Assembly (NCBI GenBank): GCA_038065715.1
Contig: JBBTQL010000004.1
Location: 35,693 to 99,692 of the forward strand
DNA from: Patescibacteria group bacterium
Lineage (GTDB): Bacteria > Patescibacteriota > Minisyncoccia > Minisyncoccales > Staskawiczbacteraceae
Direction of reading: 5' to 3'
Length of the DNA: 64,000 bases
Under the pieces are notes generated by a model. It had not been told where the DNA came from. It saw only the letters and a list, made by a program, of their open reading frames with translations, and did no database searches. Each line of letters begins with the position of its first letter. The first letter of the stretch is position 1. A program made the translations under genes and the position numbers. Positions 7,914 to 41,482 of this stretch are shown one piece after another.

Positions 7914-8748
7914 TTTTATTAAAAATATTATTTTTTATTTCTTTTAAGTCGGCTCCCGTTTTCATTAAAAGCCCGGCAGTTTCAAAAATTTCCTGCGTTG
8001 TTTTTGAATTTCCAAAATTTTCTGTGTAAATTGCCAGTCCTGCCAAAAAGCAGTTGGCAGCCTGTTTTTTTACCCCGTTAGAAAGCCCATCTTTTGAGGG
8101 TTCCTTATTGGATGGGTCGTATGGCCCCGGTTGCTCAAGCTTTCTATCGGGGTTTACAAGATTTAACGCCATCTCTGACAAAGAATAATCTCTTATTATG
8201 TTTATTCTACCAAAGTTTTGGTTTTTTGTCCCGACTTCGTCGAGGATGCTCGATGGCGAAGCCATCGGCACACTTTCACTATCTATATTTAAAATAAGAG
8301 AATCCAGTAAAAACCCATAAGAGTTAAGCTTGCCAGCCAATTCAGTTTTAAAATCTTTTATTCCTAAAGTTATTGTAAGGTCTGGTTTTGTTTCTGAAAA
8401 ATAAAATAAGAGGTTTTCTTTTTTTATATTTCCCCTGTCAATCATTAAATGAATTTTTAATCCTTCTTCATTTTTTTCGTAGTAAACCTGCGAGATTTCA
8501 GCTGTTTTTTGAGGAATTGAAATCACAAAGTTTTTTGGATATGAAATATGGCCTAAGCTAGGCAATAAAAATCGAAATTTTTCTGGAAATTCTTCTATTA
8601 TTAAGTTTACATTTTTATTTAATTCTTTTAAAGTATAAAAAAGAGCCAAAGCAACTGGAATGCTTTCGCCATTTGGGTTATCATTTGGAATAATGCAGAT
8701 ATTTTTTGCTTCAGAAATTAATTGCTTTGCTTCTTGCGGTATTTCCAT
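7906..8748 (-). CDS. Hypothetical protein with a degenerate DHH/NrnA-like N-terminal region
   Basis: 280 aa. ICIIPNDNPNGESIPVALALFYTLKELNKNV resembles the DHH motif region, but the catalytic His/Asp are replaced. Carries GC-rich insert A1. Confidence 0.45.
   Translation of the reverse strand: MEIPQEAKQLISEAKNICIIPNDNPNGESIPVALALFYTLKELNKNVNLIIEEFPEKFRFLLPSLGHISYPKNFVISIPQKTAEISQVYYEKNEEGLKIHLMIDRGNIKKENLLFYFSETKPDLTITLGIKDFKTELAGKLNSYGFLLDSLILNIDSESVPMASPSSILDEVGTKNQNFGRINIIRDYSLSEMALNLVNPDRKLEQPGPYDPSNKEPSKDGLSNGVKKQAANCFLAGLAIYTENFGNSKTTQEIFETAGLLMKTGADLKEIKNNIFNKNE
8228..8271. repeat. GC-rich palindromic insert family A, copy A1 (in frame in CDS 7906-8748)
   Basis: GTCCCGACTTCGTCGAGGATGCTCGATGGCGAAGCCATCGGCAC encodes ..PMASPSSILDEVG.. 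on the minus strand. Related to copies at 21287, 41150 and 61452. Confidence 0.75.
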
Positions 8749-21181: not shown

Positions 21182-21787
21182 ATGATAGCATTTTTATCGG
21201 GTAAAATTTTATTAAAAAAGGACAAGTTTATCATTCTTGAAGCAGCTGGCGTTGGCTACAAAGTTTTTTTAAATCAGCAAACCCTATCCCGACTCGATCG
21301 AGGATCCTCGACGACTTCGTCGTCGGGATTAAAATTATCAGAAATAGGGCAGGATGTAAAGCTATTTTGCTTCCAAAATATAAAAGAAGATGCTTCGGAT
21401 TTATATGGGTTTTTAAGTTATGACGAGCTTGATTTTTTTGAGGTGCTAAACGATATTCATGGCGTAGGGCCAAAAGCTGCTTTGGAAATTTCTGTGTTAG
21501 GCCCCTTAGAAAAAATTAAGGACAGAATTTTAGCGCAGGACGAAAAAATATTTGAAGGAATTCCCGGAATTGGTTCAAAAAGGGCGTCGTCAATTATTTT
21601 AGAATTGACCGGAAAAATAATGGCGAAGTCCGCCTTTGCTAAAGCTTCGCCAGACGAAGCAGAAACCGCTTTAACCCAGCTTGGTTTTTCAAAACAGCAA
21701 GCAAAGGATGCCCTGGCTCGCGTGCCTGTTGCTGTTAAAAATTCTGAAGACAGAATAAAATTAGCGCTTAAAAATTTAGGAAAATAA
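21182..21787 (+). CDS. ruvA: Holliday junction DNA helicase RuvA
   Basis: MIAFLSGKI start and HhH motifs GVGPKAALEI and IPGIGSKRASSIILEL. ATG 21182 preferred over the upstream alternative start. Confidence 0.85.
   Translation: MIAFLSGKILLKKDKFIILEAAGVGYKVFLNQQTLSRLDRGSSTTSSSGLKLSEIGQDVKLFCFQNIKEDASDLYGFLSYDELDFFEVLNDIHGVGPKAALEISVLGPLEKIKDRILAQDEKIFEGIPGIGSKRASSIILELTGKIMAKSAFAKASPDEAETALTQLGFSKQQAKDALARVPVAVKNSEDRIKLALKNLGK
21287..21329. repeat. GC-rich palindromic insert family A, copy A2 (in frame in ruvA)
   Basis: ATCCCGACTCGATCGAGGATCCTCGACGACTTCGTCGTCGGGAT has perfect 8-bp termini. Encodes LSRLDRGSSTTSSSGL. Confidence 0.75.
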
Positions 21788-22788: not shown

Positions 22789-24039
22789 ATGAGGATAAAA
22801 GAAGCAGTTAAAAAAATATTAGGCAGAAATTTGTTGGGTTTTTATCATTATGGCATGGCTTTTTTGGGAGCTGTGATTTTTGGTTTTCCATCTAAAAATT
22901 TAACTGTTATAGGGGTTACAGGCACCAGCGGTAAATCAACTACTTCTGATTTTATCACAAGAATTTTAGAAGAACCCTTCGACGGGGCCCAGGGCAGGTC
23001 TGGCAATAAGGTGGCTTCAATTTCAACAATAAGATTTAAAATTGCAGAAAAAGAATGGGAAAATAAATATAAAATGACAATGCCCGGCCGTTTTGTTATT
23101 CAAAAGTTTTTAAGGCAGGCAAAAAAAGCAGGATGCAAATTTGTGGTTTTAGAAGTTACTTCGCAAGGCATTGAACAATATCGCCATAAATTTATAAATT
23201 TTGATACAGCTGTTTTTACTAATTTGTCGCCAGAGCATATTGAAAGCCATGGCAGTTTTGAAAATTACAGAAACGCAAAACTAAAACTATTTCGAGCAAC
23301 AAAAAACATCCATATTATAAATACTGATGACGCAAATTCAAAATATTTTTGGAATATTCCGGCAAAACAAAAAATTGGATTTTCAGCCAAAGATGCGCAA
23401 AACGCTAATTTAAAATTAAATTTAATTGGAGACTTTAATATTTTAAACGCCTTAGCGGCAATTTCTGCGGCAAAGGCATATGGCATTGATTTTAGCATTT
23501 GTAAAAGGGCGCTGGAAAAGGCCAAAGGAATTTCTGGCAGAATGGAAGTGATTCAAAAAGAGCCATTCAAAGTTATTGTTGACTATGCTCATACTCCAGA
23601 ACAACTCGAAAGTGTCTATAAGGCACTTTCTCAAAACCCAAAACCTCAAACTCCAAACCCCAAACTTATTTGTGTGCTTGGAAGTTGCGGCGGGGGAAGG
23701 GATAAATGGAAAAGGACTGTTTTAGGAGAAATTGCAAATAAATATTGCGACAAAATATTTATAACCAATGAAGATCCATATGATGAAAACCCCAACCAGA
23801 TTTTATCTGAAATAAAATCTGGAATTATCAATTCTCAATTTCCAATTTCCAATTTATATGAAATTTTAGACCGTAAAGAGGCAATTAAAACTGCAATAAA
23901 ATTAGCAAAATCAGATGATATTGTTATAATCACTGGCAAGGGTTCAGAATCCTGGATGTGCATAGCAAACGGTAAAAAAATCCCCTGGGACGACAGGCAA
24001 ATCGCTAAAGATGCGTTGGGGCTCCAAACCTTGACATAG
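22789..24039 (+). CDS. murE: Mur ligase, MurE-like UDP-MurNAc-tripeptide synthetase
   Basis: GVTGTSGKSTT P-loop, DYAHTP and GSCGGGRDKWKR. Carries in-frame repeat inserts at 22975-23004, 23630-23667 and 23835-23856. Confidence 0.8.
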   Translation: MRIKEAVKKILGRNLLGFYHYGMAFLGAVIFGFPSKNLTVIGVTGTSGKSTTSDFITRILEEPFDGAQGRSGNKVASISTIRFKIAEKEWENKYKMTMPGRFVIQKFLRQAKKAGCKFVVLEVTSQGIEQYRHKFINFDTAVFTNLSPEHIESHGSFENYRNAKLKLFRATKNIHIINTDDANSKYFWNIPAKQKIGFSAKDAQNANLKLNLIGDFNILNALAAISAAKAYGIDFSICKRALEKAKGISGRMEVIQKEPFKVIVDYAHTPEQLESVYKALSQNPKPQTPNPKLICVLGSCGGGRDKWKRTVLGEIANKYCDKIFITNEDPYDENPNQILSEIKSGIINSQFPISNLYEILDRKEAIKTAIKLAKSDDIVIITGKGSESWMCIANGKKIPWDDRQIAKDALGLQTLT

Positions 24040-24059
24040 ATGCTTTAATATGATATGAT
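24031..24059 (+). promoter_or_regulatory. Promoter of DGR-1 target gene
   Basis: TTGACA, 17 nt (TAGATGCTTTAATATGA), then TATGAT, with a TG-extended -10. Nearly identical to the promoter at 61997-62025. Confidence 0.65.
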
Positions 24060-24097
24060 TAATAATATAGCTCTTTTTTATTGTTACTTGCGAAATT

Positions 24098-24153
24098 GGC
24101 AGTTATAGCCAAAAGCTACTGAATTATATCGGTATCTTCTGGCTATGACTGCT
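24098..24153 (+). promoter_or_regulatory. Conserved 5' leader hairpin of DGR target mRNA (copy 1)
   Basis: 13-bp stem GGCAGTTATAGCC / GGCTATGACTGCT. The same stem occurs at 62068-62150 with A-U to G-U compatible changes and a larger loop. Confidence 0.6.
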
Positions 24154-24218
24154 ATGTCGGTACGTCAAGCAGAAACCAGCCTGTCATAATTGGCGGGCAA
24201 AACAGAAAGGAGATTGTC

Positions 24219-24878
24219 ATGGCTGTGCAAGTCATTGGCGATCTATATGTGGAGTTGGATGGGAAGTTGGCGGAGATTAAGCGGCAAATGAGGCAGCAGG
24301 GAGGCTATCCGTTTGACCCGGAGAAATTAAACAAGTTTCTCCAACTAGCTGTCGAGGGCAGGTTCAACGACAACCGGTGCTGGTGCGAGAAGGAAGGAGT
24401 GATCTACTTTGAGGTCACCTCTGACGGCACGACTGGACCCCAATGGATTGAGCGTCTGGAGAAGAAGGGTATCCAGCTCTCCAAGTGGGCCAAGGACGTC
24501 CTGCTGTCTCCGGACTTCAAGCCGACCAACGGCGTGACCACCGAGATCGCTGTCCTCAAGGGCGCGCTTTTTATGGACAATGATCGCATCACGTCTAAGA
24601 TCCGCGCTGAGGCCGACAAGCGCAAGCTCGTCAAGCCCGAAGCCGAACTCGGTTGCCTTATCCGCGACACGTTCACGGACGAGGAAATCGAAGCCATGGG
24701 TCTTGTGTGGATCGTGGCGTTCCACGAGCCCATCAAGGACTCTGACGGCGATCCGACGTTGCTCGGTGCGCGTCGCCTTGGCGATGGCCGTTGGCTGCGC
24801 GCGTGCTGCGGCCTGCCCGACCGCAGGTGGCTTCGCGACCGTGGCTTTGCCTTCGCCGTCTCGCAAGTATCTTCGTAA
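24219..24878 (+). CDS. DGR-1 variable (target) protein with C-terminal VR, no signal peptide
   Basis: 219 aa; RBS AAAGGAG before the ATG. Sampled 60-nt lines are about 60-65% GC versus about 30% for the genome. The C-terminal 42 codons are the VR. Confidence 0.85.
   Translation: MAVQVIGDLYVELDGKLAEIKRQMRQQGGYPFDPEKLNKFLQLAVEGRFNDNRCWCEKEGVIYFEVTSDGTTGPQWIERLEKKGIQLSKWAKDVLLSPDFKPTNGVTTEIAVLKGALFMDNDRITSKIRAEADKRKLVKPEAELGCLIRDTFTDEEIEAMGLVWIVAFHEPIKDSDGDPTLLGARRLGDGRWLRACCGLPDRRWLRDRGFAFAVSQVSS
24741..24866 (+). repeat. Variable repeat VR-1
   Basis: Gap-free 126-nt alignment with TR-1. There are 21 substitutions opposite TR adenines and one C/G difference; the last 25 nt are identical. Confidence 0.9.
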
Positions 24879-24974
24879 GTCCTTTGGGCTTGAGCCTTTG
24901 CTCTAGCCCTTGGATCCTCTGCCCTTTGCATTTCCTCACGGACTTGCACTGGGCAGATTTTTTTTGCTAAAATA

Positions 24975-25334
24975 TAAATGGTAATAGGTGAATCTTGCGG
25001 GAGATCAAGGTTTCCCGCGGCCGAATCCAGTATTCGTATGCTGAGAGCGTTTGCGATTAAGGTTGCAAACGGAGGGCATACGAATTACTTTCAAAAAAGA
25101 AGATACTTGGCGTGGGAAACTAGGGCATTACGATGCCGAATTCGATACAGCCCTGTGATCGTAAAACTACTTCAAGGGGCAGTGGCATAGATGGTTTCTT
25201 GCGTATTTCTGACGGCGATCCGAACTTGCTCAGTGCGAATCGCAATGACGATGGCCATTGGCTGAACGCGTACTACGACAAGCCCGACAACAGGTGGAAT
25301 CGCGACAATGGCTTTGCCTTCGCCGTCTCGCAAC
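24975..25334 (+). ncRNA. Putative DGR-1 template RNA (structured 5' region plus TR)
   Basis: Candidate promoter TTGCAC-18-TAAAAT (TG-extended) near 24940-24972. Extended hairpin at 25029-25089 and blocks conserved with locus 2 up to 14 nt before TR. Transcript ends are not determined. Confidence 0.5.
25209..25334 (+). repeat. Template repeat TR-1 (noncoding)
   Basis: Copy of the VR with A at 21 variable positions, mostly in AAC/AAT codons of the VR frame. No RBS or start codon. Confidence 0.9.
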
Positions 25335-25339
25335 TCTCT

Positions 25340-25699
25340 TCATTTCTCTCCTTGCTTAGGAGAGTTTTGTTTAATAATTTGTCCCGACCAACCACCGAGC
25401 ATTTTGCCAATTTCATCTAGTTTCAATGATAGAGCAATATATTTTTTGTTATCCAATGATTTTGTTTCCCAAAGAATCATTAAAAATATTTTTAACGTAT
25501 CGACCTTTCTAATTGCTAAACGTACATAGGACAATTTTTCTGATTGCCCAAGAAAACTTGCAGTCACTATTGCCTCTATTGCTTCAACAAAAAGTTTATC
25601 AATTTTTTCACCAAGAGAATATTTATGTATTTTTGGTATAATTAAATAGTGTTGGTACCAAAAAAGATAAGCTTCTTTCAACTTTTGCAAAACAGGCAA
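25340..25699 (-). CDS. avd: DGR accessory variability determinant (Avd-like four-helix-bundle protein)
   Basis: About 119 aa from a TTG start (LPVLQKLKEAYLFWYQ...). Homologous to the 122-aa ORF at 63274-63642. Helical pattern with C-terminal IGKMLGGW. The track ORF extends further upstream (25834), probably spuriously. Confidence 0.8.
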   Translation of the reverse strand: MPVLQKLKEAYLFWYQHYLIIPKIHKYSLGEKIDKLFVEAIEAIVTASFLGQSEKLSYVRLAIRKVDTLKIFLMILWETKSLDNKKYIALSLKLDEIGKMLGGWSGQIIKQNSPKQGEK

Positions 25700-25705
25700 C
25701 AGTCT

Positions 25706-25715
25706 GGGGGGGGGG
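25706..25715. repeat. Homopolymeric G10 tract in the avd/RT divergent gap
   Basis: G10 lies 6 nt from the avd TTG start and 24 nt before the RT ATG. The paralogous position in DGR-2 has G7. Confidence 0.9.
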
Positions 25716-38037: not shown

Positions 38038-38054
38038 TTGTATTTATTATTTTA

Positions 38055-38403
38055 GTGGAAGCGCCGGGGTCGAACCCGGGTCCAGAAATTTTTTAAAAAT
38101 AAATCTACAAATTTATCTTGCTTTGTTGTTTGGATATTAAATAAGAAGCAAGAAAAATGTTTAATATCCTAATTCTCGTAAATCTCGACAGTTCCCCGAG
38201 AAATAAAACTGCCTATCCTGAAAATATAACACCCTCGGTCCATTTATCAGGAGTCAATGGCGAGGATGCAGCATTAAGCTAAAGCTAGTGCTGGTTGCCT
38301 ATTAAATAAATTAGCAATTATGTTTTTTCTATAAGTTTAACCAGGTTATAGAAAACTGGATTTGCATATTTTTAATGAAACATCTGTCAAAACTTACGCT
38401 CCC
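38055..38403 (-). ncRNA. ssrA: tmRNA (SsrA)
   Basis: 5' GGGAGCG pairs with 3' CGCTTCC-A, including a G3:U pair. T-arm GGACCCGGGTTCGACCCCGG. Tag frame GCT AAT ... GCT TAA predicts ANLFNRQPALALA. Adjacent to smpB. Confidence 0.85.
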
Positions 38404-39830: not shown

Positions 39831-41482
39831 TAAAAGAAGAAATAAAAAAAATAGTGGAAAACTCAATTAAAAACCTGCAAAAACAGGGCGCATTTTTAAA
39901 ATTAAAAATGCCAGAAATTTTAATTGAGCGGCCTAAAGAAAAAATACGCGGTGACTATTCAACCAACATTGCCTTTGTAATTGGAAAAGATGTTTTGAAA
40001 AATCCATTTGAAACGGCATTGCTTTTGAAAACAGAAATTGTCTCGCTTTGCGAGATCTCGCGCAGCGAGAAAAAACAAAAATCTGTAATAGAAAAAGTTG
40101 AGGTAGTGGGAGGGTTTATTAATTTTTTTGTTGCTGACGATTATTTTAAAAATCAGCTGCAAATTATTTTAAAACAAAAAAACAAATTTGGAGATTTAAA
40201 ACTTGGTAAAAGTCAAAAAGTAAACATAGAATTTATTTCTGCAAATCCAACAGGGCCGTTAACTTTAGGAAACGGCAGAGGAGGATTTTGTGGCGATGTT
40301 TTGGCTAATGTTTTAGAAAAAGCAGGATATAAAGTTGAAAGAGAATATTATATTAACAATACCGGAGCTCAAATTAAAAAACTTGGGCATTCTGTAATTG
40401 GAGATGCAGAAGCTGTTTACAAAGGAAAATATATTATTGATTTAAGAAACAAAGTTAAGGGAGATGACCCCGAGAAAGTTGGAGAAAAATCGGCAAAAAT
40501 TATTTTAGAAAAAATGATAAAGCCGTCTGTAAAAAAAATGGGAATTAAATTTGACACATGGTTTTCAGAAAAAACTCTCTATAAAAATAAAGAAGTAGAT
40601 AAAACAATACAAGAATTGGCTAAAAAAGGGTTCACCTATGAAAGCGAAGACGCTGTGTGGTTTAAATCTAAAGAATTGGGCGATGACAAAGACAGGGTTT
40701 TGGTGAGAGCCGACGGAATTAAAACATATTTTGCTTCAGATATTGCTTATTTTAAAAATAAATTTAAAAGAGGGTTTGGTAAACTTATTATGTTTTTGGG
40801 AGCCGACCACTATGGATATGTTCCGAGGCTAAAAGCTGCCTCGCTTGCTTTTGGTTTTAAAAAAGACAGTATTGATGCTATTGTTATGCAGTTGGTGCGG
40901 CTTTATGAAAAAGGCAAAGAAGTAAGAATGGCAAAAAGGACTGGTATTTATGTAACAATAGATGAGTTAATTGGCGAGGTTAGTTTGGATGTTGCCAGAT
41001 TTTTCTTTTTAATGATAAGCCCTAATACCCACATGAATTTTAATTTGGATTTAGCAAAAGAAAAATCAGAGAAAAATCCGGTTTTTAAAGTGCAATATGC
41101 GCATGCCCGAATTTGCTCAATTTTCCGAAAATTTGGAAATTTCAAATTTTCCCGATTTCATCGAGGATCCTCAATGGCAAAGCCATCGGGACAAATTTCA
41201 AATTTAAAATTATTAAATGAGCCGAGCGAGTTAGGGTTAATTAGAGAATTAATTAAACTTCCAGAAATTATTGAAGAGATAGCTAAAGATTATCAAGTTC
41301 AAAGACTACCGCAATACGCAATGGATTTAACTGATGCATTCCATAGATTTTATGAAAACTGTAAAGTCCTGAGCGAAGTCGAAGGATTGCGTGATGCCCG
41401 CTTGTCTCTTGTTATGGCAACAAAAATTGTTTTAAAAAATACATTAGACTTAATGGGAATATCTGCTCCTGAAAAAATGTGA
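39827..41482 (+). CDS. argS: Arginine--tRNA ligase
   Basis: 551 aa with SANPTGPLTLGNGRG and VQYAHARICS; ends in M. Carries inserts at 40049-40078, 41137-41205 and 41368-41392. Confidence 0.95.
   Translation: MIKEEIKKIVENSIKNLQKQGAFLKLKMPEILIERPKEKIRGDYSTNIAFVIGKDVLKNPFETALLLKTEIVSLCEISRSEKKQKSVIEKVEVVGGFINFFVADDYFKNQLQIILKQKNKFGDLKLGKSQKVNIEFISANPTGPLTLGNGRGGFCGDVLANVLEKAGYKVEREYYINNTGAQIKKLGHSVIGDAEAVYKGKYIIDLRNKVKGDDPEKVGEKSAKIILEKMIKPSVKKMGIKFDTWFSEKTLYKNKEVDKTIQELAKKGFTYESEDAVWFKSKELGDDKDRVLVRADGIKTYFASDIAYFKNKFKRGFGKLIMFLGADHYGYVPRLKAASLAFGFKKDSIDAIVMQLVRLYEKGKEVRMAKRTGIYVTIDELIGEVSLDVARFFFLMISPNTHMNFNLDLAKEKSEKNPVFKVQYAHARICSIFRKFGNFKFSRFHRGSSMAKPSGQISNLKLLNEPSELGLIRELIKLPEIIEEIAKDYQVQRLPQYAMDLTDAFHRFYENCKVLSEVEGLRDARLSLVMATKIVLKNTLDLMGISAPEKM
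41137..41205 (+). repeat. Composite insert in argS: family A copy A3 nested within an AAATTTC heptamer repeat
   Basis: AAATTTCAAATTT (41137-41149), then TCCCGATTTCATCGAGGATCCTCAATGGCAAAGCCATCGGGAC, then AAATTTCAAATTT (41193-41205). Encodes GNFKFSRFHRGSSMAKPSGQISNLK. Confidence 0.8.

Follow-up and report, generated by a model that had tools for sequence, protein, structure and literature searches.

Results

Two DGR cassettes with antisense avd genes

The window (the whole stretch of DNA analysed, 64,000 nucleotides) carries two DGR cassettes, recognized as such by the adenine signature of their TR/VR differences, a reverse transcriptase (RT) and an Avd. The TR of locus 1 (25208..25333, plus strand) is a direct repeat of a VR at 24741-24866 in the target gene at 24219-24878, and that of locus 2 (63165..63276, plus strand) is a direct repeat of a VR at 62704-62815 in the target gene at 62142-62822. 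There are 22 TR/VR mismatches per locus, and in both loci 21 of the 22 fall at TR adenines. The locus 1 RT is encoded at 25740..26726 on the plus strand (Pfam RVT_1, E=1.1e-24), and avd (accessory variability determinant) lies at 25340..25699 on the minus strand, antisense to TR and RT; its start codon, TTG at 25699, was assigned by analogy with locus 2. Avd was identified by matches to Pfam bAvd PF22296 at E=1.4e-11 in locus 1 and E=2.9e-9 in locus 2. The cassettes are paralogous, with RTs that are 78% identical at the DNA level. More than 8000 RT homologues were found, and those with a named source all come from Patescibacteria/CPR. Both cassettes share their gene order and reverse-oriented avd with 'Architecture B3: TR-(avd)-RT', which was catalogued by Wu et al. 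2018 (PMC5758913); that study treats genes and repeats only, and no RNA element 5' of TR was found described in it.

Only a hairpin and a U-tract lie between TR and the antisense avd. In locus 1 the terminator scan placed them at 25346..25372 on the plus strand (CTCTCC-TTGCT-TAGGAGAG then TTTTGTTT), where the hairpin itself (25346-25364) overlaps the 3' end of the antisense avd CDS; in locus 2 it placed the hairpin at 63288-63308 and the U-tract at 63309-63316 (TTTTGCTT), also on the plus strand. A hairpin with a U-tract follows TR in 55 of 57 loci, versus 12% of random windows. Its stem (median 10 bp) varies between loci, and the hairpin is located within the avd CDS in 26 of these loci and beyond it in the other 29. 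These features meet the criteria for an intrinsic (Rho-independent) terminator, a prediction from sequence that is not backed by termination data. If termination after TR is efficient, RT needs a separate promoter; none was identified in the gap of about 40 nt between avd and RT.

A conserved RNA element adjoins TR

Both DGRs carry a conserved, folded RNA directly 5' of TR, spanning approximately 24980-25207 in locus 1 (about 230 bases) and 62942-63164 in locus 2. A profile built from the two window copies (nhmmer) matched 67 of 80 genome loci, which had been retrieved via RT similarity. A covariance model additionally recovered one locus missed by nhmmer (L032), bringing the count to 68 of the 69 genome loci with at least 600 nt upstream, and, among 54 metagenome loci with sufficient sequence upstream, matched 53. 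Overall, the element is present in 121 of 123 related CPR DGR loci with enough upstream sequence, L063 and L179 being the two that gave no match. It lies on the RT strand, adjoining TR, about 480-690 nt 5' of RT, with two exceptions (L083 and L168) in which it is downstream of a partial RT and probably belongs to a neighbouring cassette. Within the window, the only covariance-model matches are at 63035-63167 (121.5 bits) and 25079-25218 (105.3 bits); the third-best scores 14.8 bits.

The approximately 120 loci that bear the element span many CPR lineages. Divergent yet collinear versions occur on IMG/VR contigs with RTs that are 44-47% identical, and a covariance-model search of loci where the DGR RT is only about 30% identical did not find the element. 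At gathering thresholds, cmscan of the window against Rfam returned only a tmRNA, elsewhere in the window, and comparison of 24880-25400 with 4227 Rfam 15 models at E<=10 gave no match to an RT motif. A weak minus-strand match to Betaproteobacteria-1 in that comparison was dismissed, as its 20 bits fall below the gathering score of 49. There is no conserved ORF in the upstream region, each reading frame being open in at most 4 of 61 loci. The upstream element defines an RNA family, about 230-260 nt long, missing from Rfam 15. Literature searches returned no account of a DGR RNA with an upstream or permuted layout.

Covariation supports a three-helix core

The core of the element consists of a closing helix, P1, that encloses hairpins P2 and P3. 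In locus 1 (all on the plus strand), P1 is a 12-bp helix between 25110..25121 (GCGTGGGAAACT) and 25193..25204 (GGTTTCTTGCGT), the latter strand ending 3 nt 5' of TR. P2 (25124..25137; GGCAU-UACG-AUGCC) is followed by an A-rich conserved joiner at 25138-25147 (GAAUUCGAUA). P3, a hairpin with interior loops that is supported by covariation (25148..25182), comprises the pair C25148-G25182, GCCC at 25150-25153 with GGGC at 25177-25180, and GA at 25157-25158 with UC at 25172-25173, and is followed by a second conserved joiner at 25183-25192 (UGGCAUAGAU). The corresponding core of locus 2 (63066..63153, plus strand, within the match at 63035-63167) has P1 at 63066-63077/63142-63153, P2 at 63081-63094 and P3 at 63106-63131. 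In some loci the P3 loop carries variable hairpin insertions.

On an alignment made from sequence only (MAFFT), 96.3% of cells in the core helices can pair, compared with 77.2% after shuffling (reached in 0 of 500 shuffles) and 28-49% when partners are slid out of register. Shuffle controls ignore phylogeny, and slid-register controls retain it. Cells in which both partners have changed number 305, against 90 expected. Ranked by mutual information, the first 13 column pairs all belong to helices, as do 15 of the first 16; these include pairs of P1, and the highest value in the alignment belongs to the pair of columns 48-67 in the P2 region, which is paired in 100% of sequences. P1 is 97.5% paired and has compensatory changes at 10 of its 12 pairs. 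The covariation result was reproduced on the metagenome loci. Given that G-U pairs are frequent in the core (e.g., U-G at the base of P1 in 48 of 57 sequences), the RNA strand is the plus strand. Thus, the upstream element is a covariation-supported structured RNA on the TR-sense strand. Folding of locus 2 alone (62942-63316) by MFE recovers the whole consensus architecture, including the long-range helix and the 5' hairpins described below. The MFE fold of locus 1 alone prefers to pair the P1 strands with hairpin A of the 5' domain instead, and this single-sequence fold was set aside as uninformative.

A long-range helix and P1 bracket TR

A second helix, of 8 bp, joins an A-rich strand located 5 nt 5' of P1 with a strand 3' of TR. 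In locus 1 these strands, both on the plus strand of the DNA, are 25096..25103 (AAAGAAGA), which is followed by a joiner at 25104-25109 (UACUUG), and 25337..25344 (TCTTCATT), which starts 3 nt past the end of TR/VR homology. This copy contains an A-A mismatch. In locus 2, all eight positions of 63052..63059 (AAAGAAAA) pair with 63280-63287 (TTTTCTTT), again on the plus strand. Given that the helix is short and A/U-rich, about 70% pairing is expected from composition alone. Observed pairing between alignment columns 12-19 and 71-78 is 87.3%, against 70.6% for shuffled (0 of 500) and 50-58% for slid partners, with 70 double-change cells versus 23.7. On 46 new loci, for which the register was set solely by an anchor motif at the TR end and the helix columns were not used, pairing was 88.3% versus 72.4% shuffled (0 of 2000), and the fully compensated variants there include UUUGUUGC/GCAACAGG.

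The 3' strand is specific to TR. Across 57 loci the TR copy makes on average 7.0 of 8 pairs with the A-rich strand, compared with 3.2 of 8 for the VR copy, and TR and VR are identical at 2.9 of these 8 positions. On the other side of the repeat, P1 stops close to the first TR/VR-homologous base, at a median distance of 3 nt (interquartile range 1-4; 52 loci). With a median of 3 nt between P1 and TR, and with the long-range helix beginning 3 nt after TR, the repeat is bracketed exactly. The conservation, the helices and their positions relative to TR are shown by these data. At the helix end, the nucleotide covaries with its partner (A, C, U or G) and is not a fixed A or G, so that no particular nucleotide can be assigned as the primer. 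The positions A(-4), U(-2) and U(-1) are invariant and could allow pairing to continue into the last bases of TR, in which case the start site would move. We rejected a local hairpin between an upstream CUUCA and the UGAAG of the A-rich strand as a general feature, given that only 49% of cells pair in a fixed register, which does not exceed the slid controls; it could still form in some loci.

The 5' domain and a predicted promoter

Upstream of the long-range helix is a 5' domain (24980..25095 in locus 1, plus strand) that was derived with RNAalifold on the alignment and pair counts. Its consensus contains two covariation-supported hairpins with YAHG tetraloop caps. In locus 1, hairpin A (24997-25018) has a CAAG loop, an outer stem pairs 25032-25041 with 25076-25085 (ATTCGTATGC/GCATACGAAT), and within it hairpin B (25049-25070; stem 25049-25054 with 25065-25070) has a UAAG loop. 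In locus 2 the domain lies at 62942..63051 on the plus strand, as judged from the alignment, pair counts and MFE fold, with hairpin A at 62955-62976 and hairpin B at 63005-63028 (both with UACG loops) and the outer stem between 62990-62997 and 63035-63042 (ATGTATAT/ATATACAT). Pairing in this domain is 97.0%, against 64.1% shuffled and 43-50% with slid partners, and compensatory changes occur at 17 of 18 pairs.

Just 5' of this domain in locus 1 is a putative extended -10 promoter element (24965..24973, plus strand; TGCTAAAAT), a prediction at the consensus level only, and locus 2 has a -10-like sequence at 62928-62935 on the plus strand (TGTAGAAT). The motif TGnTAnnnT forms one aligned column block a median of 135 nt 5' of P1 and is present in 36 of 57 loci versus 22% of control segments. 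A sigma-70 scan of the window did not flag the proposed TR-RNA promoter. The TR RNA of locus 1 is predicted to start near G24980, based on the consensus match without transcript data.

A first-pass annotation of the window had described ordered sequence blocks shared by the two loci before TR, and hairpins with non-homologous stems at equivalent positions ahead of them. All of the blocks are present and collinear in the two-locus alignment, including the one at 25171-25194 (TTCAAGGGGCAGTGGCATAGATGG) and 63120-63143, and they are the best-conserved parts of the large structured RNA. The coordinates given for the locus 1 hairpin (25032-25041/25076-25085, with an inner stem) are correct. Those given for locus 2 (63000-63007/63045-63052) are not, as the actual site is 10 nt upstream (62990-62997/63035-63042). 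The stems proved to be two instances of one covarying stem. Gaps of 14 nt and 21 nt had been reported between the blocks and TR; counted to the starts of TR/VR homology (25208 and 63165), the gaps are 0 nt (blocks ending at 25207) and 8 nt (ending at 63156). The element is about twice the size described at that stage, and the long-range helix had gone unnoticed.

Discussion

We suspect that each cassette produces a self-contained DGR RNA in which the upstream domain recruits RT-Avd and both primes and stops cDNA synthesis. On balance we favor this interpretation, in which the transcript ends, protein contacts, priming chemistry and stop function are all inferred. In this scenario, a dedicated RNA of about 390 nt in locus 1 (approximately 24980-25372) and about 375 nt in locus 2 would be transcribed from its own promoter, located just past the terminator of the target gene, and would end at the hairpin and U-tract right 3' of TR, with the upstream region as its non-template part. 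The upstream domain would fold into two tetraloop hairpins and the P1/P2/P3 junction, and the two adjacent helices, 5 nt apart on the upstream strand, would bracket TR. The 8-bp long-range helix may be the template:primer duplex, and P1 may act as a roadblock and organizer, like the avd:Sp "cPRT Stop" duplex of BPP-1. RT-Avd could bind the core of P2, joiner and P3 together with the post-TR hairpin, which occupies the position of an Avd-binding stem-loop, although there are no binding data. The cDNA would then start from a ribose hydroxyl where the upstream strand ends on its 3' side (in locus 1, around A25103-U25108), and RT would copy TR with adenine-specific errors and halt at P1.

The mechanism of DGRs is known almost wholly from one phage element, in which the essential cis RNA is 3' of the template. 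The BPP-1 DGR RNA comprises the 3' end of avd, TR and a 140-nt Spacer (bioRxiv 10.1101/2023.10.23.563531; PMC6182149). In the cryo-EM structure of its bRT-Avd:RNA complex, a primer strand (Sp47-56) is followed after 2 nt by a stop strand, Sp59-70 (Handa et al., bioRxiv 10.1101/2023.10.23.563531), which pairs with sequence just 5' of TR; the cDNA stops just short of this duplex (bioRxiv 10.1101/2023.10.23.563531). Beyond the stop strand are a stem-loop with adenosines, a single-stranded Thumb Ring and an RT-binding stem, and the Avd-binding stem-loop is just 3' of TR (bioRxiv 10.1101/2023.10.23.563531).

The CPR RNA resembles this arrangement in several respects. In both, TR is flanked by two adjacent helices, and a strand of the helix at the 3' edge of TR is followed after a few nucleotides by a strand of the second helix, whose partner is immediately 5' of TR. 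Past the stop-type helix, both have a short stem-loop, an adenosine-rich single strand and an interrupted stem. Both systems use an RT and Avd pair and show adenine-specific TR/VR differences. The CPR stem-loop directly 3' of TR is a further likeness, but it also fits an intrinsic terminator, and binding data are lacking. However, the connectivity of the CPR RNA is circularly permuted: the module that resembles the primer, stop and RT-binding parts (roles that are inferred) is 5' of TR rather than in a 3' Spacer. Unlike BPP-1, the CPR loci have no structured 3' Spacer between TR and RT, their RNA seems to end at the U-tract after the post-TR hairpin, an extra 5' domain with one or two tetraloop hairpins is present, and avd, being antisense, has no role in the 5' flank of the RNA. 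No sequence or covariance-model similarity was detected between the BPP-1 Spacer (Rfam RT-10) and the CPR element.

Retron msr-msd RNAs have a comparable order, in which the 5' strand of a terminal helix is followed by structured RNA recognized by the RT (recognition is inferred for CPR), the template, and the 3' strand of the helix. The nucleotide predicted to prime synthesis likewise lies before the template, at the 3' end of the 5' strand, an arrangement that in retrons yields a 2'-5' branched RNA-cDNA. The CPR elements differ from retrons in that their RT is in a DGR cassette with Avd and TR/VR (no RT phylogeny was built), the cDNA would serve mutagenic homing rather than accumulate as msDNA, and there is neither a conserved branching G nor a match to a retron covariance model. 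The RT-1 to RT-19 motifs are structured RNAs beside bacterial RT genes that were proposed to be primers or cis elements, RT-10 being the BPP-1 Spacer (Weinberg et al. 2017, PMC5737381). Like these motifs, the CPR element is a structured RNA near an RT; unlike them, it matches no Rfam 15 model, and we take the motifs to be included among the 4227 models searched.

A bolder reading is that this is a naturally circularly permuted DGR RNA of CPR bacteria, non-coding and self-contained from promoter to terminator, with the primer strand, stop helix and RT-binding module all placed before the template and with priming upstream of TR from a 2'-OH, as in retrons. We consider the case for and against it to be evenly balanced. 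Counting against the interpretation favored above, Handa et al. described BPP-1-like upstream and downstream duplexes in CPR DGRs, based on 40 nt upstream and 100 nt downstream of TR. The permutation fits the unusual gene order with its antisense avd, because a Spacer no longer has to be accommodated between TR and RT.

The first-pass annotation had inferred that the upstream segment supplies RT/Avd recognition or priming in a DGR RNA with a layout other than that of BPP-1. Comparative evidence supports the functional part, with binding, the priming site and transcript ends still inferred, and the layout is supported by the presence of structured RNA 5' of TR and only a hairpin and U-tract 3' of it. 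Lack of conservation of the blocks in related DGRs would have refuted the idea, and on checking they are conserved. A transcript start downstream of the blocks would also have counted against it; instead, the promoter-like extended -10 is upstream of them, although this is no more than a consensus prediction.

Among the alternatives, the one that survives best is that the upstream RNA is a scaffold and not a primer. In this case it would bind RT-Avd, P1 and the long-range helix would only loop TR and set its boundaries, and priming would come from the 3'-OH of a terminated or nicked RNA, from nicked target DNA, or from a site reached by read-through into the antisense avd. The bracketing helices are shown, yet there is no evidence of the priming chemistry, the helix-end nucleotide is not invariant, and 3'-OH priming from nicked template RNA was proposed for BPP-1 (PMC5703328). 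We nevertheless regard this as unlikely. The upstream strand, 5 nt and P1 mirror the primer strand, 2 nt and stop strand of BPP-1, the helix docks 3 nt past TR/VR homology, where initiation must occur, and the U-tract right after the post-TR hairpin means that a downstream spacer could exist only if termination fails.

It seems much less probable that the element is a regulatory leader, which would control the level or survival of the TR RNA by riboswitch-like, thermosensing or stability/processing effects and have no role in reverse transcription. A large conserved 5' structure with a terminator-like hairpin farther on would be consistent with such a leader, and the conserved single-stranded joiners could make a ligand pocket. 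However, there is no plus-strand ORF before the terminator, the whole TR separates the terminator from the element with no alternative antiterminator pairing seen, and no Rfam riboswitch matched. Furthermore, both long-range contacts are at the exact TR boundaries, which a regulator would not need.

The possibility that the conservation does not reflect an RNA, but a small protein, a DNA site or a recent duplication of cassettes within the genome, can be all but discounted: ORFs at 24978-25190 and 62947-63162 (70 and 71 aa) overlap the region and the cassettes are paralogous with similar RT genes, but the small protein is ruled out by the different reading frames of the shared blocks in the two loci and the lack of a conserved open frame (none in more than 4 of the 61 loci), and compensatory changes, strand-specific G-U pairs and retention in about 120 loci from many CPR lineages argue against the rest.

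A very large fraction of environmental DGRs belongs to CPR bacteria. Should the cis RNA of these DGRs prove to be an upstream, permuted version, then a covariation-backed structure that predicts the start and stop sites of the cDNA is available for testing. In addition, were the permutation true, DGR and retron priming architectures could be interconverted through a simple permutation, and the RNA layout of the most abundant environmental DGR clade would be invisible to surveys for a 3' Spacer. The two-helix geometry observed in the BPP-1 cryo-EM structure also gains independent support from evolution through the CPR element. Finally, the arrangement may offer a compact and modular design for engineered mutagenesis, consisting of a 5' scaffold, any template and a terminator hairpin.

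Two retroelement cassettes

The window carries two DGR cassettes of identical layout. Locus 1 has its target gene at 24219-24878, the VR at 24741-24866, the TR at 25208-25333, an antisense avd at 25340-25699 and the RT at 25740-26726. In locus 2 the target gene lies at 62142-62822, the VR at 62704-62815, the TR at 63165-63276 and the antisense avd at 63274-63642, with an RT that starts at 63685 and is truncated by the window end. In Pfam, the RT matches RVT_1 and the products of the two avd genes match bAvd. Both cassettes bear the DGR signature, given that TR adenines account for 21 of the 22 TR/VR mismatches at each locus. This gene order has been catalogued as "Architecture B3, TR-(avd)-RT" (PMC5758913). 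Close homologues of the RT number in the thousands, and those with a named source are from Patescibacteria/CPR.

A simple-sequence tract lies in the short spacer that separates the divergent avd and RT starts (G10 at 25706-25715, G7 at 63649-63655). Just 5' of the RT, most of 27 inspected loci (L001-L080 range) have such a tract, a poly-G run of ~7-13 nt, with (GT)n in its place in L058 and (GA)n in L038. Given the variable length, slipped-strand, phase-variable control of avd/RT expression is a possibility. The sequence before each target gene (24031-24218; 61998-62200) contains a near-consensus promoter, TTGACA-17-TGnTATGAT, and a conserved ~150-nt leader in which an 11-bp stem (CAGTTATAGCC/GGCTATGACTG) encloses a variable insert. 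Weaker matches occur upstream of target genes in L001, L075, L066 and L023.

A conserved RNA fold upstream of the template repeat

The comparisons establish the conservation of an element directly 5' of the TR, its strand, its helices and its exact placement around the TR. The first-pass annotation had described ordered sequence blocks shared by the two loci and an upstream hairpin in each, and the observation as a whole is confirmed. When 24870-25400 was aligned with 62815-63350, all listed blocks were present in the same order, and the positions reported for the long block and the locus-1 hairpin held. The locus-2 hairpin exists but had been misplaced; it lies at 62990-62997 and 63035-63042, 10 nt further upstream. 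The proposed distances of 14 and 21 nt from the last block to the TR also failed, as the gap between this block and the start of TR/VR homology is 0 nt in locus 1 and 8 nt in locus 2.

RNAalifold predicted three helices from an alignment of 57 loci made with MAFFT on sequence alone (A2); in locus 1 these are the 12-bp P1 (25110-25121 with 25193-25204), the hairpin P2 (25124-25137) and the interrupted hairpin P3 (25148-25182). In a structure-blind mutual-information scan, helix pairs were the top 13 and 15 of the top 16 signals. Standard pairs make up 96.3% of the core pairing, compared with 77.2% after shuffling (0/500) and 28-49% with slid partners, and 305 double-change cells were observed where 90 were expected. 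These pairing figures recur in the metagenome set, for which the alignment was fitted to the model and is thus biased toward structure. G-U pairs are abundant, which identifies the plus (TR-sense) strand as the one that folds. The joiners are conserved in sequence (AAUAAGAUACAG-like and GUGGCAUNGAUGG-like).

A small-protein reading can be rejected: although ORFs of 70 and 71 aa run through the region, the blocks common to the two loci differ in frame between them, and no conserved open frame spans the element, none being open in more than 4 of 61 related loci.

The P3 apical loop (25159-25170 in the window, and in L075, L076, L045, L016 and L012; A2 columns 94-107) takes insertions whose size ranges from ~10 nt, as in locus 1, up to an entire additional hairpin. 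Divergent IMG/VR relatives have insertions of 16-32 nt in both P2 and P3.

In most loci a terminator-like hairpin for the target gene lies 5' of the core and is followed, at a fixed distance, by a TGnTAnnnT motif (36/57 loci versus 22% of controls). Next comes the conserved start GGWAGUAGG, then two hairpins with YAHG tetraloops, the second of them nested in the outer stem described in the first pass. Pairing in this 5' domain is 97.0% standard, versus 64.1% shuffled and 43-50% slid, with compensation at 17 of 18 pairs. The gap between VR and P1 is shorter in 14 genome loci, and those inspected lack the second hairpin module. We infer that the RNA spans roughly 24980 to 25372. Locus 1 alone has a minimum free energy (MFE) fold in which the P1 strands (25110-25121, 25193-25204) pair with the two strands of hairpin A (24997-25018) rather than with one another, which may be either an artefact of the folding algorithm or a real alternative conformer.

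Distribution of the element

Retrieval by RT gave 80 genome, 52 IMG/VR and 80 metagenome loci. A profile built from the two window copies matches 67 of the 80 genome loci, always on the RT strand and 480-690 nt upstream of the RT; all except two of the misses lack upstream sequence. R1, a covariance model of the core, recovers one of these two (L032) and finds the element in 53 of the 54 metagenome loci with enough upstream sequence. Within the window it matches only at the two cassettes (121.5 and 105.3 bits; next best 14.8 bits). L063 and L179 are the sole RT-related loci with sufficient upstream sequence in which R1 finds no element. In IMG/VR contigs with RTs 44-47% identical, matches are weak yet collinear, with large insertions in P2 and P3, and the element is absent from loci with ~30%-identical DGR RTs. 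No family in Rfam 15, which we take to include the RT-associated motifs of Weinberg et al., matches the region; one of those motifs, RT-10, is the BPP-1 Spacer (PMC5737381).

Strong R1 matches also occur downstream of a partial RT (L083:1844-1984) and, on the minus strand, downstream of an RT on the opposite strand (L168:1524-1608). Each is probably part of another cassette nearby, the window likewise carrying two.

A long-range helix across the template repeat

An A-rich strand directly 5' of P1 (25096-25103 in locus 1; 63052-63059 in locus 2) forms an 8-bp helix with a strand just after the TR (25337-25344; 63280-63287). In A3, where 5' and TR-end segments were aligned by sequence only, this helix is 87.3% paired versus 70.6% shuffled (0/500) and 50-58% slid, with 70 double-change cells against 23.7 expected. 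The result was replicated in 46 non-identical metagenome loci, with the register set solely from the TR-end anchor motif (88.3% versus 72.4% shuffled, 0/2000, and 50-58% slid), and fully compensated variants include UUUGUUGC/GCAACAGG and AAAUACUU/GAGUAUUU. A competing local hairpin received no support.

TR/VR homology ends at a GCAA motif, beyond which the VR enters the stop codon and the 3' strand of the helix is TR-specific; with the upstream strand, the TR copy forms 7.0 of 8 pairs and the VR copy 3.2 of 8. P1 stops a median of 3 nt short of the first TR/VR-homologous base, the long-range helix begins 3 nt past the last, and 5 nt separate the two helices on their upstream strands. A post-TR hairpin (median 10 bp) with an immediate U-tract is present in 55 of 57 loci, versus 12% of random windows; its stem sequences vary between loci, and the hairpin falls within the avd coding sequence in 26 of them and beyond it in the remaining 29. 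The complete 375-nt locus-2 RNA recovers the whole architecture in its MFE fold without any guidance.

Relation to the BPP-1 RNA

The BPP-1 RNP contains a duplex of the primer strand (Sp47-56) with TR117-129; 2 nt on, Sp59-70 pairs with sequence just 5' of the TR as the "cPRT Stop", the cDNA ending just before that duplex. From there the strand runs into a short stem-loop, followed by A-minor adenosines, a single-stranded Thumb Ring and an interrupted RT-binding stem, and an Avd-binding stem-loop lies immediately 3' of the TR (bioRxiv 10.1101/2023.10.23.563531). Each of these elements has a counterpart in the CPR RNA, at the same position with respect to the TR. The elements are connected in a different order, however: the primer-type strand is followed after 5 nt by P1 strand a, and then by P2, the A-rich joiner, P3, a further joiner, P1 strand b, the TR, the template-type strand, the hairpin and the U-tract. 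Relative to BPP-1, the CPR RNA is circularly permuted, and its topology resembles that of retron msr-msd.

By this comparison, we infer that cDNA would be primed from the upstream strand, although the priming nucleotide cannot be named, that P1 would halt its synthesis, and that RT-Avd may bind the core and the post-TR hairpin. The first-pass proposal that the upstream segment supplies RT/Avd recognition or priming is supported on comparative evidence, with the biochemical test pending. The search of other DGRs by Handa et al. was limited to 40 nt on the upstream side of the TR and 100 nt on the downstream side, a span that would miss the upstream strand described here. No published account of this arrangement was found in the literature searched. 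Pending biochemistry, an upstream, permuted layout is clearly of interest for retroelement research.

Other features of the window

A full-length tmRNA gene lies on the minus strand at 38053-38403 (Rfam RF00023, 112 bits). A 42-nt G+C-rich palindromic repeat (TCCCGAC...GTCGGGA; repeat family D7) occurs in three copies in otherwise A+T-rich surroundings (8229-8270, 21287-21328 and 41150-41191); the copies could be REP-like elements or terminators.
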